Source: a virus
Virus record (IMG/VR): IMGVR_UViG_3300046170_000391
Strand: one strand, 5' to 3'
DNA length: 64,000 nucleotides
The position numbers and the translations under genes were made by a program. The notes beneath the pieces were generated by a model. That model saw nothing but the letters and a program-made list of their open reading frames with translations. It was not told the origin of the DNA and did not search any database. Numbering within the stretch: position 1 is the stretch's first letter; every line of letters starts with the position of its first letter. Shown one piece after another: positions 4,575 to 52,680 of the stretch.

Positions 4575-5534
4575 TTAAAGTCCGTTAGGTACGATTACAT
4601 AATGAATAGATAAGACTACTCCAACAGAAGCAGCAAGTCCGACCATCATTTTAAGAAAGTCTTTTCCTATTAGTGGAAATACAACTTTGAACTTTTCCTT
4701 GCCTGTCATAGTTGCCATAGCAAGTTCACGTCCACATAGTAACCCTACAAATACCCAGGTGGTTGACATGGGTATATCATTTAGCTCTTTAAAAAAGAAT
4801 AAGATAACCCAATATACGGCATCAATAATTGTAGCGGAGCGAACATAACGAGTATTATGCTTCTCTAAAACAATATTTTGAATTTTACCTCCACCTTCTC
4901 TAAACATGAACCAAAGTCCACCTACAAAGATAATAGAAATTGCAAACATCATATCCGCAGGAATTTGTCTTGGTAAAAAGACTGCAATATTTGCGATATC
5001 ATGGGATAACCAAGTCCACCAAAGAAAACCTGTTGTTACCCATTGTCCGATTCTCCACCAACGCTTATGTTCTTCTTTAACTGGTTTAGATTCGTCTAAA
5101 ATTTTAGTTACACCAATCCATATAGCATAGGCAGCAACAGCAGCTACAGCATATCCCATCATGGATTTCATTAACATTTTTTCTAGTACAAAAGTAGAAG
5201 CAAAGGCTGAAAGTACTAAAAAAGATGTGCTAACAGGCACACCGATCCGCGTTAGTAGAAGTAGAAGTCCAGGGGCTAACGCGTGATACCACTGAATTTC
5301 TTGGAAGGGGATTTTATTCAGTCTTCCATAGGAGATGTCTCCTCCATATGTAAACCACCCGTACCATAATGCCCATAACAAAACAGACGAAGCAGCAAGC
5401 CACATCGTCCTCCAATGAAATCGTTCGTTGTTAGAAGCAATCCAAGTACCAAGAGTTTGTACTGAGTCATTTGCTATTACTGAATACGCAGCAAATAAAA
5501 AACCAACACCCATCCAAAGAGTTAAAAGTTCCAT
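4575..5534 (-). CDS. PiT/PHO4-like inorganic phosphate transporter
   Basis: Polytopic membrane protein with duplicated PiT-type signatures ANDSVQTLGT/PVSTSF and SHDIANIA/PMSTTW; Pho box upstream. Confidence 0.75.
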   Translation of the reverse strand: MELLTLWMGVGFLFAAYSVIANDSVQTLGTWIASNNERFHWRTMWLAASSVLLWALWYGWFTYGGDISYGRLNKIPFQEIQWYHALAPGLLLLLTRIGVPVSTSFLVLSAFASTFVLEKMLMKSMMGYAVAAVAAYAIWIGVTKILDESKPVKEEHKRWWRIGQWVTTGFLWWTWLSHDIANIAVFLPRQIPADMMFAISIIFVGGLWFMFREGGGKIQNIVLEKHNTRYVRSATIIDAVYWVILFFFKELNDIPMSTTWVFVGLLCGRELAMATMTGKEKFKVVFPLIGKDFLKMMVGLAASVGVVLSIHYVIVPNGL

Positions 5535-5555
5535 TTTAATTTCTCCTTAGAAAAG

Positions 5556-5581
5556 TAATAAGAGGCTATAGCCTCTTATTA
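5556..5581. repeat. Perfect 26-bp palindrome TAATAAGAGGCTATAGCCTCTTATTA
   Basis: Exact self-reverse-complement; could be a terminator for the synthetase-tRNA transcript and/or a 5' hairpin of the PiT mRNA. Confidence 0.75.
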
Positions 5582-5583
5582 TT

Positions 5584-5617
5584 AGTATATTATAAAATTG
5601 TTACAGTTTTGTGAAAT
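5584..5617 (-). promoter_or_regulatory. Pho-box (PhoB-dependent) promoter for the PiT-like transporter
   Basis: Minus strand ATTTCAC-AAAA-CTGTAAC (5617-5600), 10-nt spacer, -10 TATACT (5589-5584), matching PhoB box geometry. Confidence 0.65.
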
Positions 5618-5632: not shown

Positions 5633-5717
5633 TGGCTGTGGAGGATGGAGTCGAACCATCACGCCTTTCGGCACACGAGAAACAGTCGTGCGTGTCTACC
5701 AGTTTCACCACCCCACA
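5633..5717 (-). tRNA. Atypical tRNA-Asn(GUU) with class II long variable arm, encoded CCA
   Basis: TGTGGGG TG GTG AAACTGGTAGA CAC G CACGA CTGTTTC TCGTG T GCC GAAA GGC GT GATGG TTCGACT CCATC CTCCACA G CCA; all stems pair; anticodon at 5683-5681. Confidence 0.9.
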
Positions 5718-6574: not shown

Positions 6575-6603
6575 AAAAAGACGCGCAGATTTAAAACCTG
6601 CGC
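6575..6603 (-). promoter_or_regulatory. Leader hairpin GCGCAG...CTGCGC followed by a T run (terminator/attenuator-like)
   Basis: Stem 6603-6598/6588-6583 then GTCTTTTT, lying between the promoter and the RBS of the AsnRS-like gene. Confidence 0.5.
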
Positions 6604-6615: not shown

Positions 6616-6644
6616 ATTATATAAGAAGTATAGTAAGTATGCAA
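6616..6644 (-). promoter_or_regulatory. Sigma70-type promoter TTGCAT-N17-TATAAT for the AsnRS-like/tRNA unit
   Basis: Read directly; exact 17-nt spacer. Confidence 0.7.
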
Positions 6645-6665
6645 ACATAATTTAATTTTAAATAC

Positions 6666-7760
6666 TTACTCTGGTAGTTGATATAGTCTTATCACTTGTT
6701 TTGTAATGTACTGTATTTCATCGTCTGTTAAGTGTGGATTTATAGGAATTGAAAGAGCATGTTTTGCAAAATACTTAGAGTAAGGTAGTTCTTTTTTATC
6801 TTCAACCCATTTAAGTTCTGAAAATACATCGGGATAATGACATTCTGAATCTATGCCTACTTTTTGAAGTCTTTGATACATCTCAAACTTATCATCTACT
6901 TCAATAACATATTTATGAGTATTATTTTCAGAATACCTAGGAGAAGGACGAAATTTCACATCATGTTCATAAAACTGAGTATCATAATAGTCCCATATTT
7001 CAAGTCTTCTTTTTTGCCAAGCATCAACCCAGTTAGTAGCCGACCAAATCTGAGCAGCCTTATCTTCTTCTGGCACTGCGTTGATTCCTGACGACACCCA
7101 CTCAGATCTTCTACTATACTTGCCATGTTTACGTAAAGATAAAAGTTTAAAATATTTTGAAGTATCATTTAAGAGCACTGCTCCAAAAGTGCCTAAGCTA
7201 GGAATCGGTTTGTTTTCTGCAAAAGAAATACAAGCAATGTCACCTCTACTCATAGGTTCTTCACCTTTGTAACGACCAAGGTAGCTTTGTGAAGCATCAT
7301 TTATATGTATCAAACCATACTTATTACATATATAAGAGACTTCATCAATATCATAGGAATCTCCATATAACCCAGTACCTGTTATAGCTTTTGTTTTAGG
7401 AGTGATAAGTTTTTCAATTTTATCTGTATCAATTAAACCAAATCGATCTACATCACAAAAAATAGGAGTGGCGCCTGAATTAATGACATAGGTTAAAGAA
7501 GCCATGCAACTATAACCTGTAATAATTACTTCATCACCTGCCCCTATATCATTTACTAATAGTGCTAAATGTAATGCTTGAGAACCGCTTCTTACTAAAA
7601 GAGCGTGTTTTCTATCTGCAATTTTTTGTAAATAGTGTTCAACCTTATTAGTATAAAACCCATTAACAGTTTTTTCAGAACCAGAGATTACTTCAAGGCT
7701 ATTGAAATAGTCTTCTTTTATATCTTGAAAACGTCTTGCTAGGTTATATGTATGAATCAT
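6666..7760 (-). CDS. DegT/DnrJ/EryC1/StrS PLP-dependent sugar aminotransferase
   Basis: SGSQALHLAL, GDEVI, INDASQS, SFAENKPI (PLP Lys), LSIPINPHL. Confidence 0.9.
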   Translation of the reverse strand: MIHTYNLARRFQDIKEDYFNSLEVISGSEKTVNGFYTNKVEHYLQKIADRKHALLVRSGSQALHLALLVNDIGAGDEVIITGYSCMASLTYVINSGATPIFCDVDRFGLIDTDKIEKLITPKTKAITGTGLYGDSYDIDEVSYICNKYGLIHINDASQSYLGRYKGEEPMSRGDIACISFAENKPIPSLGTFGAVLLNDTSKYFKLLSLRKHGKYSRRSEWVSSGINAVPEEDKAAQIWSATNWVDAWQKRRLEIWDYYDTQFYEHDVKFRPSPRYSENNTHKYVIEVDDKFEMYQRLQKVGIDSECHYPDVFSELKWVEDKKELPYSKYFAKHALSIPINPHLTDDEIQYITKQVIRLYQLPE

Positions 7761-9035: not shown

Positions 9036-9193
9036 GCAGAAGCAACATTAGTTGGAGTAAAAAAAGTAGAAGGAACTTCCTCAGATGTAGTACCACAATC
9101 GCAAATATCACAACCACACGCACCGTTCTCGCAACAGTCCCACGCACAATGGCAGTTACATCCGCATTTCTTACAATTCTTCGTTTCGATCAT
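9032..9193 (-). CDS. Metallothionein-like Cys-rich peptide (53 aa)
   Basis: MIETKNCKKCGCNCHCAWDCCENGACGCDICDCGTTSEEVPSTFFTPTNVASA; 11 Cys plus His; ATGA overlaps with both neighbours; below the ORF-track cutoff. Confidence 0.75.
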   Translation of the reverse strand: MIETKNCKKCGCNCHCAWDCCENGACGCDICDCGTTSEEVPSTFFTPTNVASA

Positions 9194-10278
9194 GCAGCTA
9201 AACTTTCGGGTAAATGAATTAGGGGATTAGAAGGATTAACACCTAAAAACTTGCCCCATTCTGCATAATAATGACGCATACCAACTTCGTCATGAATAGT
9301 CGAATTCTCATGTCTACCATGTAGTATGTTTCTTGATTCTGTTCCCTCACGCATCGTAGTACCCTGCCCAGCAACGCCAATAAGGTCTTCGTGTAGATTA
9401 CGACCAAAAGGACCCCAGATGGAGTTGTGATGTTTTATGCGTGTTTGTCTTTCTTCTGGTGTATCTTTTCTTAGTCCATATCCACGAAACTCAATAAGAA
9501 CTTTATTAGGACCAAGGGGTGTTACCGAGTCTGAACGATATGCGCTCCCACGGAGGTTAAAATTGAATCCTGGGAAGAGGTCAACCATGTACCACTGGTT
9601 GGGCGGCAGATTGGGAAAAGATAGTTCCCCGCGATCTTCAAATCCATCATACTCTTCATAGTTAACAGTAAAGCTGCTAACATTAACATGACCATTATCA
9701 AAAGGAATATTCTTTCTAGCGAAATACTCATCGTTAAATCCTGACACTCTGTTGAAATAATGCATAAAGTCATGATAGAACTCGCTGTTAGTATCATGCC
9801 ATAATTTATAATTAGTATCTATAATAGCTTTATGATAATGAAATACTTCCATTTCTTCAGTATCAATGGCATCTGCAATACAATCAAATGCACCTGCTGT
9901 CCATTCATCTACGCTTTGTGTAGGATTAGGATCAAGTGTTACCCAAACCATTCCACCATGTTTTACTTCACAGTGTAGTTGTGGTTCGACTGTTACGATT
10001 GGTGCAGCGACTGTACCAGATGGAGAATTAAATCCATGATTACAATATGCCTTAACACCGTCTTTGGTATTTACTGCAATCACATTCTGTCCAGCAATCT
10101 GTGTGGTTCTATAGTTGCCTTCATTGTACATCTCTGAGATATGACACATAGGAACCCAAACTTTACTAAAGATCATTTCTTGTTCTGCTAGATAAACATC
10201 GTGACTATTATAACAGTCACTACTAATATATTCAATTTTCGGTAATTTAGTCCAATTGTTATGGTTTCTTGGTGCCAT
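9190..10278 (-). CDS. Ring-hydroxylating oxygenase alpha subunit, MsmA (methanesulfonate monooxygenase)-like, Rieske cluster motif missing
   Basis: EQEMIFSKVWVPMCH..YRTTQIAG N-terminus; NYKLWHDTNSEFYHDFMH mononuclear-Fe motif; LFPGFNFN; HEDL; likely start MAPRNH; MsmA subfamily call is from recall. Confidence 0.75.
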   Translation of the reverse strand: MAPRNHNNWTKLPKIEYISSDCYNSHDVYLAEQEMIFSKVWVPMCHISEMYNEGNYRTTQIAGQNVIAVNTKDGVKAYCNHGFNSPSGTVAAPIVTVEPQLHCEVKHGGMVWVTLDPNPTQSVDEWTAGAFDCIADAIDTEEMEVFHYHKAIIDTNYKLWHDTNSEFYHDFMHYFNRVSGFNDEYFARKNIPFDNGHVNVSSFTVNYEEYDGFEDRGELSFPNLPPNQWYMVDLFPGFNFNLRGSAYRSDSVTPLGPNKVLIEFRGYGLRKDTPEERQTRIKHHNSIWGPFGRNLHEDLIGVAGQGTTMREGTESRNILHGRHENSTIHDEVGMRHYYAEWGKFLGVNPSNPLIHLPESLAA

Positions 10279-10660
10279 CTTCGTTTCCTTCTTCCATTGC
10301 TGATTCATAATAAATTATGATTTCATTTTGTTGATCAATAAAACGTTTAATATCTGCTATGTTAAGTGCTAAATTTTCATAATCTTTTATAGCTAAAGCG
10401 ACATAAGCTAACTCACCATTTTCTTCTGTAAAATCTTTTACAAACTGGTCGTAGTTATCTTTATTAACCACATAAACTCTAGTATCAACTAGCTGGAGTG
10501 GTTTGGGCCTTGCTACTACTGGTACTGTTATTTTCTGAGTCTGAGTTACTACCTTGACTTCCTGTTCGGGGATCAGGCTGCAACCAGTTAGGAAGAGGCT
10601 TGCTATCACTACTGCCAGTGCTTTCCATGAAGTCTCTCCAAAGTTTAGCTGTTGCTCCAT
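10259..10660 (-). CDS. Outer-membrane spanin (Rz1-like lipoprotein)
   Basis: Lipobox LTGC, Pro-rich segment, overlaps the 3' part of the i-spanin in another frame. Confidence 0.7.
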   Translation of the reverse strand: MEQQLNFGETSWKALAVVIASLFLTGCSLIPEQEVKVVTQTQKITVPVVARPKPLQLVDTRVYVVNKDNYDQFVKDFTEENGELAYVALAIKDYENLALNIADIKRFIDQQNEIIIYYESAMEEGNEDGTKKP

Positions 10661-12083: not shown

Positions 12084-12741
12084 CTCTCCTGTTCTTTAAC
12101 AAAGGTAAAAAGGGAACAGCACTTTTTTCAAAAATAATCGGATCATCGTTTTCAACAGTCATAATAATTGCTATATCTTGAATTCCTGTACCATACATTT
12201 CATTATGTGCAACAGCGTATGCACAGCCTTGAATATAGTAGTCCGTAATTTGCTTTTGATTCTTTTTCTTTTTTGATGTTTTAAAATCAATAATTGTAGG
12301 CTTGCCTTTCCATATACCTACCATGTCTGTTCTTCCTGCATAGCGGTATTTATTAGACCATAGTACTTGTTCTTGTCCCCAAACTTCTTCAACACCTGTT
12401 TCAGTAGCTCTAATAAGATTAGCGGTCATAGATCTAACATCCAACTGTAATGTCTTGATTTCTTCCCAGACGTCTTCTCCGTTGAAGTGTCTTTCAGCAA
12501 GCTCATGAACAAGCGTGCCTCTATCCGTAGCAAGTTTAGAAATGCGTGCAGCTTCTTCTTCACCAACTTTATCCTTCCATCTTTGTAACCAAGTTTGATC
12601 TGATGTCTTACCTAGTATAGTTGTAATAGATGGGTAGGACCCATCAGGGGTATGATAAGTTCTACCAGTAGGTAATGTGTCTGTGTCTACTTCAGTTAGA
12701 TACTTGAACTTCTCTTTTGTAATCTTCCACTGTGTTAACAA
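12046..12741 (-). CDS. PD-(D/E)xK exonuclease (Cas4-like phage exonuclease)
   Basis: YPSITTIL, RGTLVH, YAGRTD, IIDFKTS, QGCAYA. Confidence 0.85.
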   Translation of the reverse strand: MLTQWKITKEKFKYLTEVDTDTLPTGRTYHTPDGSYPSITTILGKTSDQTWLQRWKDKVGEEEAARISKLATDRGTLVHELAERHFNGEDVWEEIKTLQLDVRSMTANLIRATETGVEEVWGQEQVLWSNKYRYAGRTDMVGIWKGKPTIIDFKTSKKKKNQKQITDYYIQGCAYAVAHNEMYGTGIQDIAIIMTVENDDPIIFEKSAVPFLPLLKNRRDEFDKLQRNTST

Positions 12742-14059
12742 TAGGTTTTCCTTTTGCGTTTAAACTCGTGTTTATCAGTATGGGGTATCCATATTGTCTG
12801 GTTATCTCTAGTACTTTCCAAATATAAGCATTTTTATTGCGACTAACTAGTTGAAGACGAGCTGATTTATCATGAGTAGTAAAATTACCTCCAATAATAT
12901 CAGCAACAAATAGCATATCATGACTAGGCTGATAAATCTTAAACCACGTATCAGCTTCTTCTTCTTGACAAATAGGGGCATAAGGCCTCCAGGAATCTGT
13001 ATCACGTTTCTTAATTTTGTTTAATTTTTTAATATTATCATTTGTAGGAATACAGAGCAAGCTACGATTACCTAATGCACGAGGCCCAAACTCAGCCTTT
13101 CCCTGTATAATAGGAACAATTTCTCCTTTTAGTAATCTTTCCGCCGCCTCATCTGTAGTGACATCATTAGTATCGGTTATCCCTAAATAAGCACTCTCCC
13201 ATAAAGGTCTACAAATTAATGCCGCTGCTCCTAAAGCACACCCTGCATCTCCTGCTGCAGGTTGTATCGCTACTGAATCAAATCCTGAGTGTTTTTTTAT
13301 TTTAGTATTAGCGACACAGTTTAATGCTACTCCTCCTGCATATGCTAAGTTTTTCATACCAGTTTCTTGTTGGAGCCACGTAGCCAACGCAAGAAGAACA
13401 TTTTCAGTAACTCTTTGAACTGAAGCAGCAACATCCCAATCTAAAATACCGTAACCAACACCACGTTCAAGGTTATGCAATAGAGTGTAATCTCCATCCG
13501 CATTCCAATCTATTATTTTTTGATTTATCCAAGGTAACCACTTCGGCTCTCCATGAGCAGCTGCTGCCATTACTTGAGACTCATCACAAAGAGGTTTAAG
13601 TCCCAAGAAACGAGTAGCACTAGAGTAAAATAAACCAATAGAGTTTGGATACATAAACCTTTTAATCCATTCAATTTTGCCATTTTGATAAACTCCTAAA
13701 GATGTTGAATATTTACCTCCTACGGTATCTACCACCATAACGGCACACTCATACCAATCAGTCAAAAGGACAGAGCTCATAGCATGTGCTTCATGATGAT
13801 CTACTAAAACAGGTTGAGCTTTAGTAATCTTTTTAATTTCTGATTTAAAATCGTTGTAAGTAGACTCTTCATAAAAAGCAGCAAACTCAAAGTCTTCATA
13901 TACATCTTGCAACCATTTTACTGTATTATGAGGGAAGGATTTATCATATTTTTTACGAGTAAAACGTTCCTCATGAGAAGCACCAACTATTGAAGTATCT
14001 TTTATAAATGCTGCAGCGCTATCGTGGTGATAACAGCTGACTCCTAGTATGTTCATCAA
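12692..14059 (-). CDS. Carbamoyltransferase (NodU/CmcH/TobZ family)
   Basis: HDSAAA, EERFTRKK, HHEAHA, GGVALNC, AGDAG, EFGPRALGNRS, RPYAP, NTSLN. Confidence 0.9.
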   Translation of the reverse strand: MMNILGVSCYHHDSAAAFIKDTSIVGASHEERFTRKKYDKSFPHNTVKWLQDVYEDFEFAAFYEESTYNDFKSEIKKITKAQPVLVDHHEAHAMSSVLLTDWYECAVMVVDTVGGKYSTSLGVYQNGKIEWIKRFMYPNSIGLFYSSATRFLGLKPLCDESQVMAAAAHGEPKWLPWINQKIIDWNADGDYTLLHNLERGVGYGILDWDVAASVQRVTENVLLALATWLQQETGMKNLAYAGGVALNCVANTKIKKHSGFDSVAIQPAAGDAGCALGAAALICRPLWESAYLGITDTNDVTTDEAAERLLKGEIVPIIQGKAEFGPRALGNRSLLCIPTNDNIKKLNKIKKRDTDSWRPYAPICQEEEADTWFKIYQPSHDMLFVADIIGGNFTTHDKSARLQLVSRNKNAYIWKVLEITRQYGYPILINTSLNAKGKPIVNTVEDYKREVQVSN

Positions 14060-22905: not shown

Positions 22906-23239
22906 CCATTGTGTTGATCTTGTCGTTGATATATTGTTAATTGTATGGGAAGTTATCAGTAGTCCAATACTTATAGCTATGCGTCTTATAAGGCACTTTG
23001 TAGGTGAGTGGATAACAGATAAAATTAAAGCAGGAGTGCGTAAAATAGCACACTGGTTTGAGCATAAAAGAGAGTATAGATTAAAAAACGGATATGGAAT
23101 ATTTCGTACATATTGGTGGTTAATTATTTCAAGTCCTATAATTATATTTATCAGTATTTTTATTGTAGCTATACTGTCAGGATTACACGAAGGTTTAAAT
23201 ATAGCTTTCGAAGAAATTAGTGCTTCGTTTGAGGAGTAG
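22865..23239 (+). CDS. Hypothetical membrane protein
   Basis: Two hydrophobic segments; 3' end overlaps the tmRNA acceptor piece. Confidence 0.55.
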   Translation: MKLLQKIKKWITIDHCVDLVVDILLIVWEVISSPILIAMRLIRHFVGEWITDKIKAGVRKIAHWFEHKREYRLKNGYGIFRTYWWLIISSPIIIFISIFIVAILSGLHEGLNIAFEEISASFEE

Positions 23240-23716
23240 TATAATAGACGGACTGGACTCGGGGGCAGTACCCGACGGCTCCACCATAAACACAGGAATA
23301 ACACATGAAAGAATATATGTTAATAATCAGCATGTGGGGAAGTGATGGAAGCACAGAGCATTACATTGGTCAGATGGTTTTACAACAACCAATGAGTAAA
23401 TCTCAGTGTGAGTGGATGATTGAGGATGAACAGTGGGGTGCAAGTTTTGATAATGAGTATTACTTCTTTGCTAGACACTGTATGCCGAAAGATTGTGCTG
23501 GAAAAGATTCCTGTGACTAAACACTATTGGTGTGTTTATGATGGGGCCGAAATAGGATCGACAGACGTAATAAAAACAATGCCGAGAAGCAGGTGCGCAA
23601 GCGACCTCAACCGCAAGAAAACAAACAATTGCAAATGATAATTTCGCAATCGAGGACTACCGCATAGCGGCATAGTCTCACGGGGTATGGCTCCACCTAG
23701 CAACAGAACGGGCCTT
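23221..23716 (+). ncRNA. ssrA: Circularly permuted two-piece tmRNA (alphaproteobacterial type); outer ends approximate
   Basis: Acceptor piece ends ...TCGGGGGCAGTACCCGACGGCTCCACCA (23286); coding piece starts GGGGCCGAAATAGGATCGAC (23543); acceptor stem has G3.U70; tag 23631-23675 = ANDNFAIEDYRIAA*. Confidence 0.92.
23305..23520 (+). CDS. 71-aa hypothetical protein encoded inside the tmRNA intervening segment
   Basis: CAGGA RBS, ATG..TAA entirely within IVS 23287-23542; 4 Cys. Confidence 0.65.
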   Translation: MKEYMLIISMWGSDGSTEHYIGQMVLQQPMSKSQCEWMIEDEQWGASFDNEYYFFARHCMPKDCAGKDSCD

Positions 23717-23737
23717 TACAACTCTTATGAGGATTAA

Positions 23738-38614: not shown

Positions 38615-38658
38615 AAATATAACTTTCCCAATTGTTAACTTTAAGATATTATCTTTAT

Positions 38659-40401
38659 ATGAATTACAGAGAACTCAAACAACTTATCCAAAAACACAAT
38701 CAAGCTTATTATGACAACTCAGCGTCTATGATTACAGATACTGAGTATGATCAGTTATATGATAAACTCGAAGCGATGGAAAAGGCACAAGGTTGGAGAG
38801 ACCATGATTCCCCTACTAAACATGTAGGCGGGTCTGGGGGTAAGATTACGCATCCACATAAGCTCTATTCTCTTCGAAAGGTTTACGATATTGCTGAAGT
38901 AGATGATTTTATGTCAGTCAAACTTCCTAAAATTGATGGAGCTAATCTAACTCTTATATATCGTAGAGGCAGATTGCGGATGGGATTAACTCGTGGTAAT
39001 GGTGAGCAAGGCACAGATGTAACACACCTAGTTGGTATGTTGATTGGTGCTCCCGTAAAGATTGACACAGAAGAAGATGAAGTTGTACTTAATGGTGAGT
39101 GTGTAACTGAGAATGATGTAGAAAATTATCGTAACTATGTGAGTGGCGCACTCGGACTTGATAGGCCTGGTGAGTTTGCGGAACGTAATATAAAATTTAT
39201 TGTTCATGATTGGTTAGGCGTCAATATGAACTATACAACACGTATGAAAATTGTTAAGAACATGGGATTCTATACTGTTCTTGATGATGAATCTTGGAAC
39301 TACCCACAAGACGGTGTAGTGTATCGTACAGACTCTTGGGAACAAGAGCGTAGTCTTGGTCACACTTCAAAATATCCAAAGTTTGCAGTAGCTCTAAAAG
39401 AGCGTGAAACGCAAACAGCAATAACAATGCTAAAAGCAGTACAATGGACTATTGGACGCACAGGTCAAGTTAGTCCAACAGGTATTATCGACCCTGTAAC
39501 TCTTGACGATGCAGAGATTAGGCGTGTAACTCTTCATAATATTGGAATTATTCAAGAGCACAATCTTGGTCTAGGTGACATGATTGAGATTGAACGTGCA
39601 GGCGGGGTGATTCCAAAGTTTCTAAGAGTTATAGAACACTCACTACACAATGAAAAGATTACAAAACTATCTGCTGAAAAGGCCATAGGAGCAACTACAA
39701 AGCGAGATGGTCCTAGACTAGTGGTCGCAGATAAGAATAATATAAACACATCAAAAGTTTTAGAACATTTTATCAAAACTATTGATATTAAAGGATTAGG
39801 CCCAGCCTCTGTAAAGAAGTTAGGCTTAACACACCCAGTCGATCTATTTGATGGATTTTGTGACTGGGATAAGCTTGGTGCTAACGGCATCAAAGTGGAA
39901 GCTGAGATAGAAAGAACAAAGACTAAACCTTATGAAATTGTTCTTGCATCCCTTGGCATACCTGGACTAGGAAGATCTGCTAGTAAACTTGTTATTAGTA
40001 AGATTCCCGCGTTCAGAAATCTAAGAGATATTGAAACCACTTATATAAAAGGTATTGGTCCATCGACGATAGAATCAGTACTGTCTTGGCTTGAAGAAAA
40101 CGAGGACTGGGTACTAACCTTGCCTCTCCAACTGGAACAGAATGTGACAGTTGAAGAAGTAGTTGGAACCCCTGCTCGTAAAGTATGTATTACAGGTAAG
40201 ATGGATATGACGCGAGGTCAACTGTCAGATATACTGCAAGAAAAAGGATTTAAAGTTACTTCAACAGTCACTAAAGATTGTTACGCTTTAATAACCGGCG
40301 GAGATACTACATCTTCTAAATATAAAAAAGCAGTAACTCTAGGAGTAACCATTGTGGACTATTGGTCAAGCAAAAAGGATGTGATATCTGGTGATTTTTA
40401 A
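38659..40401 (+). CDS. ligA: NAD-dependent DNA ligase
   Basis: HNQAYY..DTEYDQL, KIDG, TRGNGEQG, DGVV, GRTGQV, RAGGVIP, C-terminal BRCT; likely start MNYREL. Confidence 0.95.
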   Translation: MNYRELKQLIQKHNQAYYDNSASMITDTEYDQLYDKLEAMEKAQGWRDHDSPTKHVGGSGGKITHPHKLYSLRKVYDIAEVDDFMSVKLPKIDGANLTLIYRRGRLRMGLTRGNGEQGTDVTHLVGMLIGAPVKIDTEEDEVVLNGECVTENDVENYRNYVSGALGLDRPGEFAERNIKFIVHDWLGVNMNYTTRMKIVKNMGFYTVLDDESWNYPQDGVVYRTDSWEQERSLGHTSKYPKFAVALKERETQTAITMLKAVQWTIGRTGQVSPTGIIDPVTLDDAEIRRVTLHNIGIIQEHNLGLGDMIEIERAGGVIPKFLRVIEHSLHNEKITKLSAEKAIGATTKRDGPRLVVADKNNINTSKVLEHFIKTIDIKGLGPASVKKLGLTHPVDLFDGFCDWDKLGANGIKVEAEIERTKTKPYEIVLASLGIPGLGRSASKLVISKIPAFRNLRDIETTYIKGIGPSTIESVLSWLEENEDWVLTLPLQLEQNVTVEEVVGTPARKVCITGKMDMTRGQLSDILQEKGFKVTSTVTKDCYALITGGDTTSSKYKKAVTLGVTIVDYWSSKKDVISGDF

Positions 40402-40445
40402 TATATTTAATAATGACCACGAAAGCAGATGCTGTCACATTTCAG

Positions 40446-40474
40446 TTGCTTCTCATAAAGTTTTTCTGTAATAT
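40446..40474 (+). promoter_or_regulatory. Promoter TTGCTT-N17-TAATAT
   Basis: Upstream of the D5-like gene; followed by hairpin CAAGAGA..TCTCTTG. Confidence 0.6.
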
Positions 40475-40548
40475 CTATATATAAAGTCAAGAGAGACAGT
40501 AATCTCTTGGAAACATTCAATAACTAAATGATCGAGGGGATCAACAAT

Positions 40549-41232
40549 ATGTCAAAATTTGAATATACTGAAGATATGGTAACCCGCATGCACGATGTAG
40601 CTGCATCAGGCGTTACCGAAGAATCAATCGAAGGTCTTATGACTGAATTCGATTTTCCACGTCGTTCTGTAACTGCAAAGCTTCGTAAGCTTGGTTACGA
40701 CGTACCTAAGAAGCCGGGCGCAGCTCCTGTTTTCTCTGCTGATGAGACAGACGCACTTGCTTCATTCTTGAATGATAATTCAGGAAACATGACCGCAGAA
40801 GAAATTGCTGAAGGATTCATGAGCGGCAAATTCACTGCGCGTCAGATCAACGGTAAAGCACTTTCATTGGAAATGACTTCACATGTGAAGCCAGCTGAAA
40901 AGAAAGTAACTCCACGTACTTACTCTGAAGATGAAGAAGCTAAGATCAGTGATATGGTCGAAGGTGGTTCTTATCTTGAAGAAGTTGCAGATGCAATGGG
41001 TCGTTCAGTCAACTCAATTCGTGGTAAACTGTTGTCAATGGGTCTTAAAGCTCCACAGCGTGATAAGAAGGCTGTTAAGTCAGATCCATATGAGGGTATC
41101 GAAGATATGCTCGACCAAACTGTTGAAGAGATTGCAGAATCATTCGACAAAACAGTACGCGGTGTAAAGACTGTTCTTACACGCCGTGGACTTAGCTGTG
41201 CAGACTACACTCCGAAAGCTGCTGGCGAGTAA
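40549..41232 (+). CDS. T5 D5-like DNA-binding protein
   Basis: RSVTAKLRKLG, QINGKALSLEMT..VKP, IRGKLLS, RGVKTVLTRRGL..DY as in T5 D5; GAGGGG RBS. Confidence 0.85.
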   Translation: MSKFEYTEDMVTRMHDVAASGVTEESIEGLMTEFDFPRRSVTAKLRKLGYDVPKKPGAAPVFSADETDALASFLNDNSGNMTAEEIAEGFMSGKFTARQINGKALSLEMTSHVKPAEKKVTPRTYSEDEEAKISDMVEGGSYLEEVADAMGRSVNSIRGKLLSMGLKAPQRDKKAVKSDPYEGIEDMLDQTVEEIAESFDKTVRGVKTVLTRRGLSCADYTPKAAGE

Positions 41233-41261
41233 TTAATACTCACAATTGTGAATATTAATAG

Positions 41262-41292
41262 GGGATGGCGGTAACGTCATCCCTCATCTTTT
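41262..41292 (+). terminator. Intrinsic terminator after D5
   Basis: GGGATGGCG-GTAA-CGTCATCCC stem-loop then TCATCTTTT. Confidence 0.65.
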
Positions 41293-41604
41293 ATGACAGA
41301 AAAAACTTTTATACTTGAATCCTTACCTGACGAAGCCTTAGATGCTATACTGTCTCTTCCTCCAGAGGCCAAGGACAAGTACTTTTCAAAATTAGCATCT
41401 AAGCAATACCCAAAGATGAATAAAGACTCAGATCAGTTTAAAGACCTTGTAGAAACTTTTATTAGTTCATTTTATATTGAAAAATTGTACAGAACTAATA
41501 GATTCTTTAATGAGAAGTTTACTCCGGTTTACACACAAAGCGGACTTATCAGAAACATTATCGCTGATATTTATTTTACCGATGACGACTTAATCACCCA
41601 CTAA
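41293..41604 (+). CDS. Hypothetical protein
   Basis: ORF track. Confidence 0.5.
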   Translation: MTEKTFILESLPDEALDAILSLPPEAKDKYFSKLASKQYPKMNKDSDQFKDLVETFISSFYIEKLYRTNRFFNEKFTPVYTQSGLIRNIIADIYFTDDDLITH

Positions 41605-41619
41605 TAAACAACAATCAAT

Positions 41620-41648
41620 TTGCACTCTTCTCTGTTTTTTGTTATTAT
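41620..41648 (+). promoter_or_regulatory. Promoter TTGCAC-N17-TATTAT
   Basis: Read directly upstream of 41672. Confidence 0.6.
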
Positions 41649-41671
41649 ATACAAAATAACAGGAGATATGT

Positions 41672-42436
41672 ATGGCTGAAATCACAGAAGCAAAAATTCG
41701 CCAAGCAGTCTGGATGATCAAAGCAAAAAAGACTAAAAAGTCTATTTGTGAACATCTAGGTATTGCTTATAATACAAAGCGTTTAGATCAAATCATTACC
41801 GACTTTTTTGCTAAAGAAGAGCGCGAAAAAGAACTACGTAAAAAAGCCTCTAGAAAAATATTTACTAAAGTAGAGAAGCAAAGTATTGCTGATCACTATC
41901 TAGAAGGTGAAACTCAGTCAGCAATCGCAAAACAATACTACATTACGCCTGCACGTGTTAAAAAGTTCCTAATGGAAATGAACGTGCCTATTCGTGCGCG
42001 TGGAAAAAATAAAGAAGCACAAACAGACCATATTATACAAGATTTAGAAGTCCGTTTTAAAGAGGGAGAGCGCGTATTTCTTGCTGAGAAAAACTGTTTT
42101 GCGGAAGTTCGTGAAGTATATGATGAAGACTGGTTAGACACTCATGAAAATGGGTTTCAAAAATATGTAGAAACATACCCTTTTAAACCGGGACGTAATG
42201 GCATGGCTGGTAGATACGCTGAACCAGCACATGGAATACACTATGAAATATATTGGATGCTAGAAGGTGAAGTTTTACCTACACGTAAACTAAACGCCTT
42301 CTTGCGTCAGCGTGAAAAAGTAAGTAAAATAATTGAAGAAACGGGTAGAGAATCCTATTTAGTATATCGTAAAGATGACTACGGAGGATATATGAGCGTT
42401 ACTCGTGATAAACTATTTCCAGTCAAGGCTACTTAA
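41672..42436 (+). CDS. HTH-containing hypothetical protein
   Basis: KKSICEHLGIAYNTKRL; YLEGETQSAIAKQYYITPARVK; AGGAG RBS. Confidence 0.6.
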   Translation: MAEITEAKIRQAVWMIKAKKTKKSICEHLGIAYNTKRLDQIITDFFAKEEREKELRKKASRKIFTKVEKQSIADHYLEGETQSAIAKQYYITPARVKKFLMEMNVPIRARGKNKEAQTDHIIQDLEVRFKEGERVFLAEKNCFAEVREVYDEDWLDTHENGFQKYVETYPFKPGRNGMAGRYAEPAHGIHYEIYWMLEGEVLPTRKLNAFLRQREKVSKIIEETGRESYLVYRKDDYGGYMSVTRDKLFPVKAT

Positions 42437-43824
42437 TGGCAATTGATTTACAAAAACTGACTCTGCGTAGATTATTAGATACGCAGAGTAACGATCTATA
42501 CTCTAAATTACTGAATCAGTATTTCACAGGTATCAATTCGGTTCTATATGATAAAATCAAATCATTTTATAAAGCTAATACTCGTTTGCCTTCTACAGAC
42601 GAGATTTTAACGTTGCGTAAAGATGCAGGTCTTCAAGAATATATTGAAAATCAAATATGTGCAGAAGATAATCACAACGAGCAAATTGCAGATGAATTTC
42701 TAGTAGCGCAACTTCAGGATTATTACATCAGGGATGAGACTATTCATTTTATGGATAAGTTTATAGATCAGATGGATAATATGGAAAAAGTTGAAGTAGT
42801 AGATAAATTTCAAAATCATTTGTTACACCTAAATCAAGCTATTCCTCATGATGATGAGCTTTATGATGTAGCGGAACTTGAATTTTTTCCTAGCGAAGAC
42901 GACTTTAAAATTTATCCTTCAGGATTATCTAATGAATTCGACTCAGTTAATGGAGGATTTGCAACACAAGAGCTTGTAATGCTAGGTGGTCGACGTGGAT
43001 CAGGTAAGTCTATTATCTCTTTAAATCTTGCTTTAAATAGGTTCTTGCAAGGAAATACAGTAGCCTTTTTTACTATTGAAATGCGATATAAAGAAGTTTA
43101 TGACAGAGTACTGTCGATTATATCTGGTGTACCTTTTCTTGATATTTTTAGAAATCAGCTAACAGACGGTCAGAAGATTCAAATGGCTAAGTCTAAATTT
43201 GAAAATTTCTACAAACCATCAGATAAAATAACTGAAATGATTAGTGAGTTAGGATACACCAAAGACTTTAAGAACTTCGAGAAAAGAGTTAAAATTGAAA
43301 GACCAGAACTTAAAGATAATAGACTATTTATGATTGACGATGAATCTCTTACTCTTAATCGTATTGATCACTATTGTAATATGTTCTCATCTAAGTATCC
43401 GAACTATAATATGGCAGTAGTCGATTATGTAAATATTATTAAACATGACGATCAAAAAGATTGGAAAACACAAATTACTATTGCAGATAATCTGAAATCT
43501 TTATCAAGAAAATATGATCTCACTATGATATCGCCTTATCAGATTGATGCTTCTGGAGAAGCTAGATTTGCAAAAGGTATTCTTGATGCAGCAGATCGTA
43601 GCTTTAACTTCTTTCCTCCCCCAGAAGATTCAGATAGAGAACTAGAAAGTAAAATATCAATTCATACTACTAAGATGAGAAACGGTAAACATATGAGTTT
43701 TGATGTTCTCATGGATTGGAGTTGCGTTAAGATTAATCCAAATTCTTCTGAATTAATTAGTGAAAAACCGCACAATGCTGTAAAGTTCGGAACTGATAAG
43801 CAGGAAGGTGCGAAAGATTTATGA
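42436..43824 (+). CDS. Replicative DnaB-like helicase (T5 D6-like)
   Basis: GGRRGSGKS Walker A, FTIEM, VVDY, PYQ, RFAKGILDAAD, KMRN. Confidence 0.9.
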   Translation: MAIDLQKLTLRRLLDTQSNDLYSKLLNQYFTGINSVLYDKIKSFYKANTRLPSTDEILTLRKDAGLQEYIENQICAEDNHNEQIADEFLVAQLQDYYIRDETIHFMDKFIDQMDNMEKVEVVDKFQNHLLHLNQAIPHDDELYDVAELEFFPSEDDFKIYPSGLSNEFDSVNGGFATQELVMLGGRRGSGKSIISLNLALNRFLQGNTVAFFTIEMRYKEVYDRVLSIISGVPFLDIFRNQLTDGQKIQMAKSKFENFYKPSDKITEMISELGYTKDFKNFEKRVKIERPELKDNRLFMIDDESLTLNRIDHYCNMFSSKYPNYNMAVVDYVNIIKHDDQKDWKTQITIADNLKSLSRKYDLTMISPYQIDASGEARFAKGILDAADRSFNFFPPPEDSDRELESKISIHTTKMRNGKHMSFDVLMDWSCVKINPNSSELISEKPHNAVKFGTDKQEGAKDL

Positions 43825-44264
43825 ACGTAGTTTTGGTAACTGGAGGATTTGACCCTATACATTCCGGTCATATTGCGTATTTTAAGGCGGCACAAGAACT
43901 AGGTGATGAATTATGGGTAGGTATAAATAGTAATGAGTGGCTTATTCGTAAAAAAGGTAAGTATTTTATGCACTTACGTGAGCGAGCTATTATTATAAAA
44001 AATCTACGTATGGTTGATCGTGTCATTACGAACTTTGACGATAGTAATGATAGTGCGAGTGGAGCAATACACAAAGCATATACTTTAGGAGCGGAACACA
44101 TTATATTTGCTAATGGCGGTGATAGAGGTAATGCTAACACACCAGAACAGTATGATTTTAGATACACACCTAACATAGAATTTATATTCGGAGTAGGTGG
44201 AGAAGATAAGAAAAATTCATCAAGTAAAATATTAAGGGAGTGGGAAAATGACAGCAGCAGCTGA
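43821..44264 (+). CDS. Cytidylyltransferase-like nucleotidyltransferase
   Basis: TGGFDPIHSGH, FANGGDR, KNSSS. Confidence 0.85.
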   Translation: MNVVLVTGGFDPIHSGHIAYFKAAQELGDELWVGINSNEWLIRKKGKYFMHLRERAIIIKNLRMVDRVITNFDDSNDSASGAIHKAYTLGAEHIIFANGGDRGNANTPEQYDFRYTPNIEFIFGVGGEDKKNSSSKILREWENDSSS

Positions 44265-44475
44265 AATACGAAAAAATATACTAACCGATAGAATGGATCA
44301 GTTACAAGCCTTTATGGAAGCAAATCATCACATGAAAAATGAGGCAGGTAATCAAGAAGTTTGGGATCTAATACTTAAGTTACAAAGATTTTGGGGAGCA
44401 ATGGGTGACGAGGATAAGGATTATATAGAAGTCGCTAAAGTTGCTGTATTGGAGAGACGTTCTTGGAACTTATAG
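44248..44475 (+). CDS. Hypothetical protein
   Basis: ORF with GGGAG RBS. Confidence 0.5.
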   Translation: MTAAAEIRKNILTDRMDQLQAFMEANHHMKNEAGNQEVWDLILKLQRFWGAMGDEDKDYIEVAKVAVLERRSWNL

Positions 44476-45320
44476 AGTTATTAAATCATAGAGGGATAGA
44501 GTATAGAAAAACAAATAATCCTTCAGAGATTCTAATATCATGTACTAGTGGTGAACATATAGATAAATCTCCTAGTTTATCTTATAATTTAGATAAGAAT
44601 ATGTTTCACTGTTGGAGTTGTAATTTCAGCGGAGGCATAACTAAGTTTATGGCTTCTATTGGAGAAACTATAGTACTGGACGTTGACAGTAAACAACCGT
44701 ATAAAATTAAAAAACTTAAAGATAAATTAAGAAAGATTATCGAAATTGATGATATACACTTACCAACTGAACGCAAGATCTTTGCAGGAGAATTTAAACA
44801 AATTGATGGCAAAACCCTAAAAGAATTTCAAGCTTTTACAACAGATCAGATGGGAATGACAGATTACATTTGCTTTCCGGTCTATCAATTTGGTAAACTT
44901 AAGTTCATAGAAGGAAGATTATCAAAGAATATCAGCGGTAAACCTAAATATTATCGTCGCCCACAAGCTGCCGCTGTTGCAGATTGTTTATTTCCTTTAG
45001 ATAAAGTTAAAAACACTAATTACGTAATCTTAGTAGAAGGTATATTTGATATGCTTAATATGTGGCAACTTGGATATCATAACACTCTTTGTATATTTGG
45101 TGCTACTAATTTTGGTCGTAAGAAATTAGAAATATTAGACAGAATTGGCGTTACAAGAGTAGATATATTAATGGACCCAGATGCTCCAGGTCAAATGGCG
45201 GCAGGTAAGATAGCTGACGCACTTGATTCTAAAAACATTTTCTCTAGGAACATTAAGCTACCATTAGGTACAGACCCCGGCGATTTAAACAAGAGACAAG
45301 CGGAGAAATATTTAATATGA
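44463..45320 (+). CDS. DNA primase (Zn finger plus TOPRIM)
   Basis: C..H..PS..FHCWSC, LVEGIFD, MDPDAPG, GTDPGD. Confidence 0.9.
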   Translation: MELIELLNHRGIEYRKTNNPSEILISCTSGEHIDKSPSLSYNLDKNMFHCWSCNFSGGITKFMASIGETIVLDVDSKQPYKIKKLKDKLRKIIEIDDIHLPTERKIFAGEFKQIDGKTLKEFQAFTTDQMGMTDYICFPVYQFGKLKFIEGRLSKNISGKPKYYRRPQAAAVADCLFPLDKVKNTNYVILVEGIFDMLNMWQLGYHNTLCIFGATNFGRKKLEILDRIGVTRVDILMDPDAPGQMAAGKIADALDSKNIFSRNIKLPLGTDPGDLNKRQAEKYLI

Positions 45321-47572: not shown

Positions 47573-47681
47573 GACACTACATCGCTTGGTTTAAAAAGTT
47601 ATATAAACAGTATGGTTTTTGGAGCGCAGTTATGTTCGCTCATTATAACGCTAAACATTATGATATAGATGGAAATTATAA

Positions 47682-48101
47682 ATGAAAGTCGGCTTTACGT
47701 GTTCTACTTTTGATTTACTTCATGCGGGGCATGTACAAATGCTACGTGAAGCAAAAGAGCATTGTGAATATTTGATATGTGGACTACAAATTGATCCGTC
47801 AGTAGATAGATCAGAAAAAAATTCACCTATACAAACAGTAGTTGAACGTTACACACAACTCAATGCAGTAGGTTATGTAGACGAAATCATACCATATAGC
47901 ACAGAAGAAGATCTCAAAGACATACTCAGTATGTACCACATAGATGTACGTATACTAGGTGAAGAGTACAGAGATAAAGAGTTTACAGGAAAAGACATTT
48001 GTCGTAAACGAGATATATCACTTTACTTTAATAAGCGTGAGCATAGATTCAGCTCAAGTGACTTAAGAAGACGAGTTACAGAGCAATGTTCGAGCACATA
48101 A
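47682..48101 (+). CDS. Glycerol-3-phosphate cytidylyltransferase-like (TagD family)
   Basis: TFDLLHAGH, VDEIIPY, RILGEEY, RFSSSDLR. Confidence 0.85.
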   Translation: MKVGFTCSTFDLLHAGHVQMLREAKEHCEYLICGLQIDPSVDRSEKNSPIQTVVERYTQLNAVGYVDEIIPYSTEEDLKDILSMYHIDVRILGEEYRDKEFTGKDICRKRDISLYFNKREHRFSSSDLRRRVTEQCSST

Positions 48102-48574
48102 AGTTTCCTTTTTTTGGGTTAAAGAAAAAACCTTACTCAGTTGAGTTTACGCTGGATAAGATTTTTGTTATCAGAACAGAAGGAAGCCACAAAGAAACTG
48201 TTGATGATAAAAATTTAGAAGGAGATTACTTTGCAAGACTTTCACAAATAGAACTTAGGTTAAATTTTGATTGTACTTGTAAAAACATACAACAACTAGT
48301 ATATGAAAGGCCTAAATGGGGAATGGATGCATGGGCTAAATCTCATGACATGTCAGAATCTTTATTTTGTAAGGCGATTAAAAGGAAGATTGTCAAGACA
48401 CATGACAATCTTGTTTGGTTTAAGTCTATATCTTACCCTTTTAGTATACCAACAGATCAAAAATTAGATCTTGACGAAGAAATGTATGGTATTCTCATCA
48501 GTATCAATAACGAATGGTTCATAAAAGAATTTACTCTTGATGAGGAACAAATTAATAGAAAAATAAGGATATAA
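48086..48574 (+). CDS. Conserved T5-like hypothetical protein
   Basis: FPFFGL..VDDKNLEGDYFARL; position downstream of the polymerase. Confidence 0.5.
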   Translation: MFEHIKFPFFGLKKKPYSVEFTLDKIFVIRTEGSHKETVDDKNLEGDYFARLSQIELRLNFDCTCKNIQQLVYERPKWGMDAWAKSHDMSESLFCKAIKRKIVKTHDNLVWFKSISYPFSIPTDQKLDLDEEMYGILISINNEWFIKEFTLDEEQINRKIRI

Positions 48575-48576
48575 AA

Positions 48577-49014
48577 ATGAAATATTTAGAAAAAACACTA
48601 CACGCACTTATTTTAAGTACTTCAATAGGATTTTGCTCTTCAATAGCTTTTGCAGACCCTATTAACGGTGATGTTACAGATCACTATAAGACCGTAATTA
48701 ATAAAACTCCCTACAATGTAGAGGTTTGTGAAAACGTATCAGTATCAGGAGATAAAACTGGTGATACTTTGATGGGGGCAATTATTGGTGGTGCTATTGG
48801 TAATAACGTTACAAAAAATGTTGATAATGGAGGAGCCGTTGGTGCTTTACTGGGAGGAATGTTAGCACATCAAAACTCGGATGCTACAGCAGGAACAAAA
48901 CGAGTTTGTAAAATGGAAACCAGATATAATGAATCATCTACACAAGTTTATTCTCACTCTGTCATCACTTTCTTTTCTAATGGTAAACAATATAGTTTGA
49001 GATTTAATAAGTGA
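48577..49014 (+). CDS. Glycine-zipper 2TM periplasmic/outer-membrane protein
   Basis: Signal peptide; GAIIGGAIGN..GAVGALLGG. Confidence 0.75.
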   Translation: MKYLEKTLHALILSTSIGFCSSIAFADPINGDVTDHYKTVINKTPYNVEVCENVSVSGDKTGDTLMGAIIGGAIGNNVTKNVDNGGAVGALLGGMLAHQNSDATAGTKRVCKMETRYNESSTQVYSHSVITFFSNGKQYSLRFNK

Positions 49015-49157
49015 AAACTTGTACTAAATGTAGTAGAGAAATAATTACTGAACTACCAGAGATTGTCTGGAGAGCTTCTTGTGCTGGTTGTAATGAACGA
49101 ATAGTTATACTGCCAAACAATGACTGTAGGCAGTATAAATATGAGGAACAAGAATGA
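49011..49157 (+). CDS. Small Zn-ribbon protein (48 aa)
   Basis: GTG start; CTKC...CAGC; 4-nt overlaps with both neighbours. Confidence 0.45.
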   Translation: MKTCTKCSREIITELPEIVWRASCAGCNERIVILPNNDCRQYKYEEQE

Positions 49158-52370: not shown

Positions 52371-52680
52371 ACTAAAAGACGCAGGTAAAAATGGATGGTA
52401 TATCGGCGACTTTGACTCTGCTATAGTAAAGTCTACCGACGTAGAGGTATGTTATAACACAATAAAAAGAGGGTATACTGACCCGCATTATCATACAAAG
52501 TGTGATGAAATTCTCTTAGTTACAAAAGGTAAGGCTATAATAAATAATACAAAAGTTAAAAAGGGTGATATAATAGTTATTAGTCAGGGCGAGGTGAATG
52601 ATATCGCTGCTATAACAAAAAAATTCACTGCTGTAGGGGTGAAAATTCCTGCAGGAGGAAACGATAAGGTTAGAATATGA
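52339..52680 (+). CDS. Cupin-domain protein
   Basis: GWYIGDF, HYH..E, VKIP..NDK. Confidence 0.65.
   Translation: MLQRLEMQISKLKDAGKNGWYIGDFDSAIVKSTDVEVCYNTIKRGYTDPHYHTKCDEILLVTKGKAIINNTKVKKGDIIVISQGEVNDIAAITKKFTAVGVKIPAGGNDKVRI

Follow-up and report, generated by a model that had tools for sequence, protein, structure and literature searches.

What does a phage do with a tRNA that carries the anticodon of asparagine on the body of a leucine tRNA, and a pyrimidine at position 37? The question is raised by an 85-nt gene on a 64-kb stretch of DNA from a marine phage (IMG/VR record IMGVR_UViG_3300046170_000391; the whole 64,000 nt are referred to here as the window), where it is the sole tRNA called by ARAGORN (5633-5717(-), anticodon GTT at position 35). 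A sequence-only reading of this gene had recognised its mixed build and offered several explanations, among them escape from host enzymes, charging with serine and a non-decoding role. What we add is a position-by-position conservation pattern for the family to which the tRNA belongs, in which the set of positions that confers asparagine identity is fixed and the set used in decoding is free, together with a strict linkage to a gene for an enzyme derived from asparaginyl-tRNA synthetase (AsnRS). The answer that we favour, tentatively, is that the tRNA would be charged by the host and would carry asparagine to this neighbouring enzyme.

The window RNA is confirmed as a genuine cloverleaf tRNA, far beyond chance. 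The Rfam tRNA model (RF00005) scores it at 43.8 bits (E = 2.7e-8; gathering score 29) and the family model, R1, at 102.5 bits. With its parts assigned from the minus-strand sequence and the minimum-energy fold, the acceptor stem has 7 bp, running from U1-A72 to G7-C66 and followed by U8 and G9, and the D stem has 3 bp (G10-C25, U11-A24 and G12-C23) with an A13/A22 mismatch, a D loop that reads AAACUGGUAGA and the A15/U48 combination. The anticodon stem of 5 bp closes the loop C32 U33 G34 U35 U36 U37 C38 (CUGUUUC); the variable region of 13 nt (U-GCC-GAAA-GGC-G-U) forms a stem-loop and, being longer than 10 nt, places the tRNA in class II; and the T arm has a 5-bp stem and the canonical loop UUCGACU, so that acceptor and T stems are in the 7/5 arrangement. 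The 3′ end carries G73 and an encoded CCA. The family model is a covariance model built from 28 distinct tRNAs; across these homologues 98.1% of cells are standard pairs and both sides have changed in 16 of 23 pairs, values that 0 of 500 shuffles reach, with slid controls 38–60% paired. This covariation, together with 124 distinct conserved homologues, rules out a pseudogene or a sequencing error.

The body is that of a phage leucine tRNA. Outside the family, the best match to the family model is a phage tRNA-Leu(UAG) at 71 bits, with tRNA-Tyr at 52 bits and all others lower. Such tRNA-Leu(UAG) genes (for example L055:612-695) have exactly the D arm of the family (UGGUGAAAUUGGUAGACACG) and agree with it in the A15/U48 arrangement, and their short variable arm is similar; the window tRNA has the Leu-type core of 3-bp D stem, A14-A15, G18-G19 placement and U48. 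Phage tRNA-Leu has A73, G1-C72 and a Leu anticodon, whereas the family has G73, U1-A72 and GUU, and because these replace the Leu elements the odd tRNA would by the known rules not be a LeuRS substrate. The replacements are those of bacterial tRNA-Asn, which shares G34-U35-U36, G73 and U1-A72, all near-invariant in the family. The two differ in other respects: bacterial tRNA-Asn has a type-I body with a 5-nt variable loop, whereas family members combine a type-II body and a Leu-type D arm with 5–39 nt in the variable region; its A37 is the site of N6-threonylcarbamoyladenosine (t6A), whereas the family has a pyrimidine there in 86% and has lost U33 in 21%; and only the family is always encoded beside an AsnRS-derived enzyme. 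By textbook rules, long-arm tRNAs in bacteria are restricted to Leu, Ser, Tyr and Sec. Judged by these positions, the tRNA is a true chimera, with a bacterial Asn acceptor and anticodon identity set on a phage tRNA-Leu body. The sequence-only reading had described the same molecule, and every feature it named, from the 85-nt cloverleaf, Leu-like D arm, A15/U48 and variable arm to the CUGUUUC loop with U37, is found by ARAGORN, Rfam and the fold, although it did not give the strand. Its Asn-on-Leu chimera also stands, but it overlooked the AsnRS-like obligate partner gene 5 nt upstream. It had further allowed for sequencing error or a decaying pseudogene, in which case related phages would show a Leu anticodon at this locus; no relative has one.

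Conservation was read from 124 distinct tRNAs, 90 of them found without tRNA preselection, a second protein query having widened the sample. Among the 90 unselected tRNAs, G34 and U35 are present in 90/90 and U36 in 89/90 (the exception, L346, reads GUC), G73 in 90/90, U1-A72 in 89/90 and an encoded CCA in 86/90. Over all 124, the anticodon is GUU in 123 and GUC in one, G73 is found in every tRNA, and U1-A72 in 123, with U-G in the exception. These are positions with a known function in bacteria, where the anticodon and G73 are the determinants of asparagine aminoacylation (Giege and Eriani 2023, PMC9976931) and U1-A72 is a determinant for the Asp-tRNA(Asn) amidotransferase GatCAB (PMC9976931). 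Around the fixed 34–36, positions 32, 33, 37 and 38 vary. In the unselected sample, position 33 is U in 71, A in 9, C in 8 and G in 2 (21% non-U33), and position 37 is U in 72, A in 11, C in 5 and G in 2 (86% pyrimidine, 14% purine); a purine at 37 occurs in just 19 of the 124 distinct tRNAs. Almost all decoding tRNAs have U33 and a purine at 37. Near-identical family members can differ solely at position 37 (C in L020, A in L044), CUGUUUC, the loop of the window tRNA, is one of the less common forms, and tRNAs without U33 still score 71–92 bits on the family model, with compensated stems. The variable region spans 5–39 nt across the family, again with compensated stems, the long arms sharing a common GCAA loop and a UAUUUA 3′ strand; pair 2-71 can be G-C, C-G or U-A. 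On this pattern the family is under clear purifying selection and, because the Asn determinants are fixed while U33 and purine 37 are relaxed, the pattern suggests that the anticodon is preserved because a protein recognises it, not because it reads codons.

Individual members illustrate the range of forms. The GUC (Asp) variant (L346:2068-2166) is an otherwise intact 99-nt tRNA with G37 that keeps U1-A72 and G73, and its sister L348 has GUU with G37. Another (L360:2000-2077) is a 78-nt type-I form with a 5-nt variable loop, AAUAU, and the same Leu-type D arm; it retains GUU, U37, U1-A72 and G73, so the long arm is dispensable. We considered the variable arm as a key recognition element and rejected it on its length range. 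Queuosine insertion as the reason for the fixed anticodon was likewise set aside: Tgt reads U33-G34-U35, and U33 is not fixed.

The linkage between tRNA and enzyme was examined from both sides. Starting from the protein, all complete relatives among the closest 80 phage contigs have the tRNA. In a first set of 83 protein-found phage loci, 81 of them complete, a family-model match of at least 71 bits lies directly downstream of the enzyme in 81/81 complete loci; the two further loci have the tRNA cut at the contig end, and all 83 reach at least 42 bits. Starting from the tRNA, with 80 loci pulled by a sequence pattern confined to the tRNA, the enzyme lies 3–233 nt upstream in 78, the other two having no upstream DNA, and 0/78 testable loci lack it. 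There are thus no separations in 161 testable loci, with enzymes diverging down to 57% identity. The same arrangement occurs in the cultured Prochlorococcus phages P-SSM7, P-SSM2 and P-SSM5, whose GenBank records annotate a ‘tRNA ligase’ gene followed directly by an 85–88-nt ‘tRNA-Asn’. In the complete genome of P-SSM2 (252 kb) the odd tRNA is the only tRNA, and in P-SSM7 it is one of four, none of them a canonical tRNA-Asn. At least 596 relatives of the enzyme protein are present in IMG/VR, the enzyme is carried by at least 599 viral contigs, and metagenomes contain more than 8000 enzyme protein clusters at 90% identity. The window phage, with its family A polymerase, DnaB helicase, NAD ligase and ribonucleotide reductase, is not T4-like, unlike P-SSM2, P-SSM5 and P-SSM7, and has little nucleotide similarity to cultured phages; because the pair is shared by those T4-like phages and by this PolA-type phage, we conclude that enzyme and tRNA move among unrelated phage backbones as one cassette. 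Several phage-type enzymes have lost the tRNA (L088, L324/325, L342-344, L347 and L349-351). As judged from this distribution, the tRNA is an obligate satellite that depends on the enzyme, a dependence that does not hold in reverse. At one locus, 8 nt past the enzyme stop codon, a 20-nt remnant (L089:3865-3884, TCCGGGGTCCCCCGGAGCCA) comprises both acceptor-stem halves, G73 and CCA, the whole tRNA body (positions 9–64) being deleted. We rejected this ‘microhelix’ as proof that the acceptor stem is the functional unit, as it appears to be a one-off: in its nearest viral relatives (L319-321, with an enzyme 86% identical) the tRNA is complete.

In the window, the enzyme gene precedes the tRNA with a spacing of 5 nt between its stop codon (TAA, 5725-5723) and the tRNA. 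Its reading frame is open up to a TTG at 6616 (5723-6616(-)), but the enzyme is probably 276 aa long, because alignments of relatives begin at residue 18–22 of the long open reading frame (ORF) and an ATG at 6553 has a Shine-Dalgarno-like AAGG. The protein matches the class II D/K/N synthetase core (PF00152, E = 1.6e-14; phrog_29758, 1.1e-128). For the profile of its family the best matches are AsnRS structures (Brugia 2xti at 2.4e-14, followed by the human enzyme); it has archaeal AspRS next, and reaches only ~4e-4 against EpmA and archaeal asparagine synthetase A (3p8t). An AlphaFold (AF2) model with a predicted local distance difference test (pLDDT) score of 94.7 has AsnRS as its best folds (1x54, 8h53 and 2xgt), the top Foldseek match being Pyrococcus horikoshii AsnRS 1x54 with a template-modelling (TM) score of 0.78. 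Motif 2 (Y87-R88-Q89-E90 ... R97-H98) and motif 3 (GGGIG..R263) are intact, and by alignment and conservation the pocket is of AsnRS type, with L67-E68 in place of the K-Q of AspRS and E106 in place of its D, positions that we take to set Asn versus Asp specificity. The enzyme therefore shares with the AsnRS catalytic domain (1x54, 2xti/2xgt, 8h53) the class IIb fold, motifs 2 and 3 and the pocket residues. What it lacks is the N-terminal OB-fold anticodon-binding domain; it aligns just to the catalytic part (chain residues about 140–380), and in this it resembles archaeal asparagine synthetase A (AS-AR; 3p8t), likewise an AsnRS core without the OB domain. It scores 22 bits on the asnS model TIGR00457 (cut-off 343) and 20 bits on the asparagine synthetase A model NF005055 (cut-off 389), and membership of the EpmA/PoxA-like or AsnA/AS-AR families was rejected on such marginal scores. 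The tRNA-linked and tRNA-less enzymes have about 105 identical residues in common, and the comparison of the two groups turned up almost no clade-specific residues marking those linked to a tRNA; for these reasons the enzyme probably carries out the same chemistry whether or not a tRNA accompanies it.

The tRNA-less relatives suggest what that chemistry concerns. Relatives 45–64% identical to the phage enzyme are found in Bacteroidota, Patescibacteria, DPANN archaea, Chlamydiota, Babeliales and Alphaproteobacteria, including on megabase contigs, and on giant-virus contigs; the odd tRNA was not found in the cellular and giant-virus relatives examined. One relative (P0124, 56% identical) is fused to dihydroorotate (DHO) dehydrogenase and another (P0141, 47% identical) to orotidine 5′-monophosphate (OMP) decarboxylase, on a giant-virus contig the enzyme gene is followed by a PyrE/PyrF/PyrD fusion, and in 6 of the 18 loci inspected pyrD or pyrF lies next to it on the same strand. 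No such fusion or adjacency to pyrD and pyrF is known for AsnRS or AS-AR. Aspartate carbamoyltransferase exceeds its cut-off in 0/5 enzyme-carrying genomes versus 14/14 controls, and the PyrC cut-off was reached in none of the five carrier genomes tested. These associations point to a connection of the enzyme family, in its tRNA-less relatives, with pyrimidine-ring synthesis upstream of DHO dehydrogenase. A full AsnRS is also present in 3/5 enzyme-carrying genomes, on which ground we rejected the enzyme as an AsnRS replacement; the Synechococcus elongatus control has AsnRS. The tRNA-linked enzymes fall into one clade of 44 and two small groups next to it in the tree; as these lie within the diversity of tRNA-less sequences, at least three changes of state are needed. 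No late pyrimidine gene was found in the window, where a weak tblastn match at 51.6 kb proved to be adenine phosphoribosyltransferase, and DHO dehydrogenase was not found in P-SSM2 and P-SSM7. A 198-kb phage contig carrying the cassette (the IMG/VR contig of L213) has a weak DHO_dh-like match of 38 bits in a 230-aa frame, ~9 kb from the cassette (G006:C1:175669-176274). Elsewhere, a divergent enzyme relative (L164:5001-6107, also L165-L167) lies inside a glycosyltransferase/methyltransferase/radical-SAM cluster; after it comes a 78-aa ORF for which no Pfam match is recorded, and this could be an arrangement like that of an amino-acid:carrier-protein ligase.

We propose, at a probability of about 0.4, that the odd tRNA is a host-charged asparagine carrier for the neighbouring asparagine-using pyrimidine enzyme and not mainly a codon reader. 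Lacking an anticodon-binding domain, the enzyme cannot account for the fixed anticodon, and since it is in the anticodon that the tRNA is most conserved, with the decoding features relaxed, charging by the host is the simplest reading. We infer that host AsnRS, or a non-discriminating AspRS and then GatCAB, would load the tRNA with asparagine; the single GUC variant (L346) fits a non-discriminating AspRS. The loaded tRNA would act mainly as a dedicated carrier or reservoir of asparagine for the enzyme next door. If hosts make asparagine only on tRNA, as many marine hosts may, an extra, poorly decoding acceptor could raise the asparagine supply and leave translation undisturbed; in a marine Synechococcus-like population asnB is merely accessory and asnA is absent (PMC9716671). 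We speculate that the enzyme might join Asn-AMP or Asn-tRNA with CO2 to give an N-carboxyanhydride, which would close onto the side-chain amide to yield dihydroorotate. We are doubtful about the stronger version of this proposal, in which an essentially non-ribosomal Asn-tRNA would feed the enzyme for dihydroorotate and so bypass carbamoyl-phosphate synthetase, aspartate carbamoyltransferase and dihydroorotase.

Several observations weigh against an asparagine carrier. A37 is present in 11/90 unselected tRNAs (12%), mostly within the canonical loop CUGUUAA, and decoding is thus possible. Class IIb synthetases approach the tRNA from the variable-loop side, and arms of up to ~12 bp might block host AsnRS or AspRS. 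The large Leu-type D loop may similarly hinder GatCAB, for which the D loop has been reported as an antideterminant (U20a of tRNA-Asp; PMC9976931). Many relatives of the enzyme, in cells and on giant-virus and phage contigs (L088, L324, L342), work without a dedicated tRNA, which is therefore not needed for catalysis. Nor does the protein give any hint of an RNA-binding surface: the tRNA-linked enzymes have no extra positive charge and are strongly acidic instead, with a mean net charge of -19.5 versus -11.9 in the tRNA-less ones.

The main rival is a private translation pair, in which an anticodon-blind mini-AsnRS would charge the tRNA through U1-A72, G73 and CCA, the tRNA would read AAC and AAU, and its unusual body would keep host class IIb synthetases away. 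The strict two-way linkage would suit such a pair, as would the retention of motifs 2 and 3 and of an AsnRS-type pocket in a protein whose best sequence and fold matches are AsnRS, and the invariant anticodon, canonical T loop and encoded CCA of the tRNA. Because the G+C content of P-SSM2 is, we presume, close to that of its host, codon compensation by the sole tRNA of this phage is unlikely. However, if the enzyme is blind to the anticodon, fixation of the latter must come from decoding, but neither U33 (other bases in 21%) nor purine 37 (present in 14%) has been retained. Close relatives with the same conserved residues are, moreover, fused to pyrimidine enzymes and have no tRNA, and no clade-specific change in this strongly acidic protein signals a new tRNA-charging function; we consider a private pair unlikely. 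The relaxed loop also counts against an ordinary supplementary tRNA-Asn, charged by the host and translating, that hitch-hikes in a cassette with an unrelated metabolic gene or, as a variant, might offset the enzyme's drain on asparagine. Its full Asn identity set (PMC9976931), the tendency of phage tRNAs to lie at mobile, non-syntenic spots (PMC3037559) and the A37 forms with a canonical loop are all compatible with this, but decoders would not show relaxed U33, relaxed purine 37 and a variable region of 5–39 nt, the unbroken linkage spans unrelated phage backbones, and asparagine use in the window is ordinary at 5.3%, so that a supplementary role appears improbable.

The sequence-only reading had suggested a tRNA reshaped to escape host anticodon nucleases, modification enzymes and non-discriminating AspRS, and a related possibility is a decoy that soaks up such nucleases or enzymes. 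It has been proposed that phage tRNAs with changes in the anticodon loop escape host tRNA nucleases (PMC10264068), and variation at 32, 33, 37 and 38 around a fixed 34–36 would agree with this. Escape leaves the obligate linkage to the enzyme unexplained, however, together with the fixed U1-A72, G73 and CCA, for which a decoy has no need; a rescue decoder would pay dearly for losing U33 and purine 37, and no defence or nuclease gene is linked to the tRNA. U37 is no fixed design feature, being one of four bases found at the position, and the positions that are conserved are exactly those that non-discriminating AspRS or AsnRS read, the reverse of what escape from that enzyme implies. We give the anti-defence explanations a small chance. 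Charging by host SerRS had been offered as an alternative, and mischarging by SerRS or LeuRS through the long arm and Leu-type core, with Asn codons misread as a result, could draw on the combination of a long variable arm and G73, as in tRNA-Ser (PMC7609411), and on the Leu-type D arm. The family has neither the conserved long arm nor the fixed acceptor pairs (for example G2-C71) of tRNA-Ser, as pair 2-71 varies and the variable region runs from 5 nt, with the arm absent in L360, to 39 nt, leaving no stable Ser identity; G73 is an antideterminant for LeuRS and TyrRS (PMC9976931); and a proteome-wide change of Asn to Ser would be harmful, making mischarging very improbable indeed. Of the explanations offered by that reading, the non-decoding one gains support, from the relaxed U33 and purine 37.

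Other systems share parts of this arrangement. In allo-tRNAs (PMC5389517, PMC7609411) and in the ProRSx/tRNA-ProA system of Streptomyces, as in this family, scaffold and anticodon belong to different amino acids, and ProRSx, like the phage enzyme, is a dedicated synthetase homologue with its tRNA encoded beside it. Allo-tRNAs have 8/4 or 9/3 acceptor/T stems, however, and the 7/5 arrangement of the odd tRNA sets it apart from them; ProRSx is a full synthetase that serves deliberate mistranslation, whereas the phage enzyme has no anticodon domain; and in the odd tRNA, unlike in either system, acceptor identity and anticodon agree, both being those of Asn. The proposed role has a different parallel. 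Staphylococcus reportedly has a non-proteinogenic tRNA-Gly dedicated to cell-wall synthesis, which the housekeeping GlyRS charges and Fem transferases draw on. It is said to combine non-ribosomal use with an anticodon kept for the synthetase and relaxed translation features, as we propose here, but to be an ordinary type-I tRNA, whereas the odd tRNA has a putative donor role and a partner that is a synthetase-derived enzyme tied to pyrimidine genes.

The two genes form a unit set off from their surroundings by hairpins (Table 1). A promoter scan of the stretch was not above chance, with 5 sigma-70-like sites against 4.3 expected. The weak ‘freshwater-2’ match covers part of the terminator hairpin as well as the ribosome-binding site of the ORF that follows, and is probably just the hairpin. 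Carbamoyltransferases such as that encoded near the unit are also found in P-SSM2 and P-SSM7 (PMC3037559). Elsewhere in the window lies a two-piece transfer-messenger RNA (tmRNA) whose alphaproteobacterial type may hint at the host; a 39-nt stretch inside it is 95% identical to Roseobacter phage DSS3P8. On a related contig, ARAGORN calls a permuted tmRNA 18 nt past the odd tRNA (L024:2445-2790).

Table 1. Position and supporting evidence of the two-gene unit, its flanks and other features of the window
Feature	Coordinates	Strand	Evidence or remarks
Type-II tRNA, 85 nt	5633..5717	minus	ARAGORN; Rfam; family model R1; covariation; fold
AsnRS-like class IIb catalytic core, probably 276 aa	5723..6553	minus	PF00152; phrog_29758; AF2; fold matches
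Terminator-like hairpin, 11 bp, T-rich tail	5556..5581	minus	52 nt past tRNA 3′ end; closes the two-gene unit
Terminator-like hairpin and T run	6583..6603	minus	Between upstream aminotransferase gene and enzyme start; separates the unit
Sigma-70-like site, TTTGCA-18-TATAAT	6616..6645	minus	Upstream of the unit; weak evidence
Rfam ‘freshwater-2’ match	5532..5595	minus	24.6 bits, E = 0.088, below gathering score
Next ORF	4575..5534		Ribosome-binding site overlapped by ‘freshwater-2’ match
DegT/DnrJ/EryC1 sugar aminotransferase	6666..7760	minus	Neighbour of the unit
Rieske-type oxygenase alpha-subunit homologue	9190..10308	minus	Neighbour of the unit
Nol/NodU-type carbamoyltransferase	12692..14059	minus	Neighbour of the unit
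Permuted two-piece tmRNA	23171..23717	plus	Rfam: alpha_tmRNA 110.7 bits, tmRNA_permuted 95 bits; missed by ARAGORN
Replication/nucleotide block	38632..63484	plus	NAD-dependent ligase, DnaB-like helicase, family A DNA polymerase, NrdA/NrdB
Adenine phosphoribosyltransferase	51506..52030	plus	Within the replication/nucleotide block

In the literature we found no paper that analyses the pair, the build of the tRNA or the link of the enzyme to pyrimidines; Sullivan et al. 2010 merely listed the gene as sporadic (PMC3037559). A widespread natural family breaks two textbook rules, the restriction of long arms to Leu, Ser, Tyr and Sec tRNAs and the requirement for U33 and a purine at 37, and its pattern of selection separates two jobs of the anticodon, recognition by proteins and the reading of codons. 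As P-SSM2 and P-SSM7 infect cultured Prochlorococcus, the system is tractable; it could reveal a natural orthogonal synthetase-tRNA pair or a tRNA that serves as a metabolic carrier, and it bears on a possible unrecognised way into pyrimidine synthesis. If the odd tRNA does supply asparagine for dihydroorotate, abundant ocean phages would carry a tRNA-dependent entry into nucleotide synthesis.

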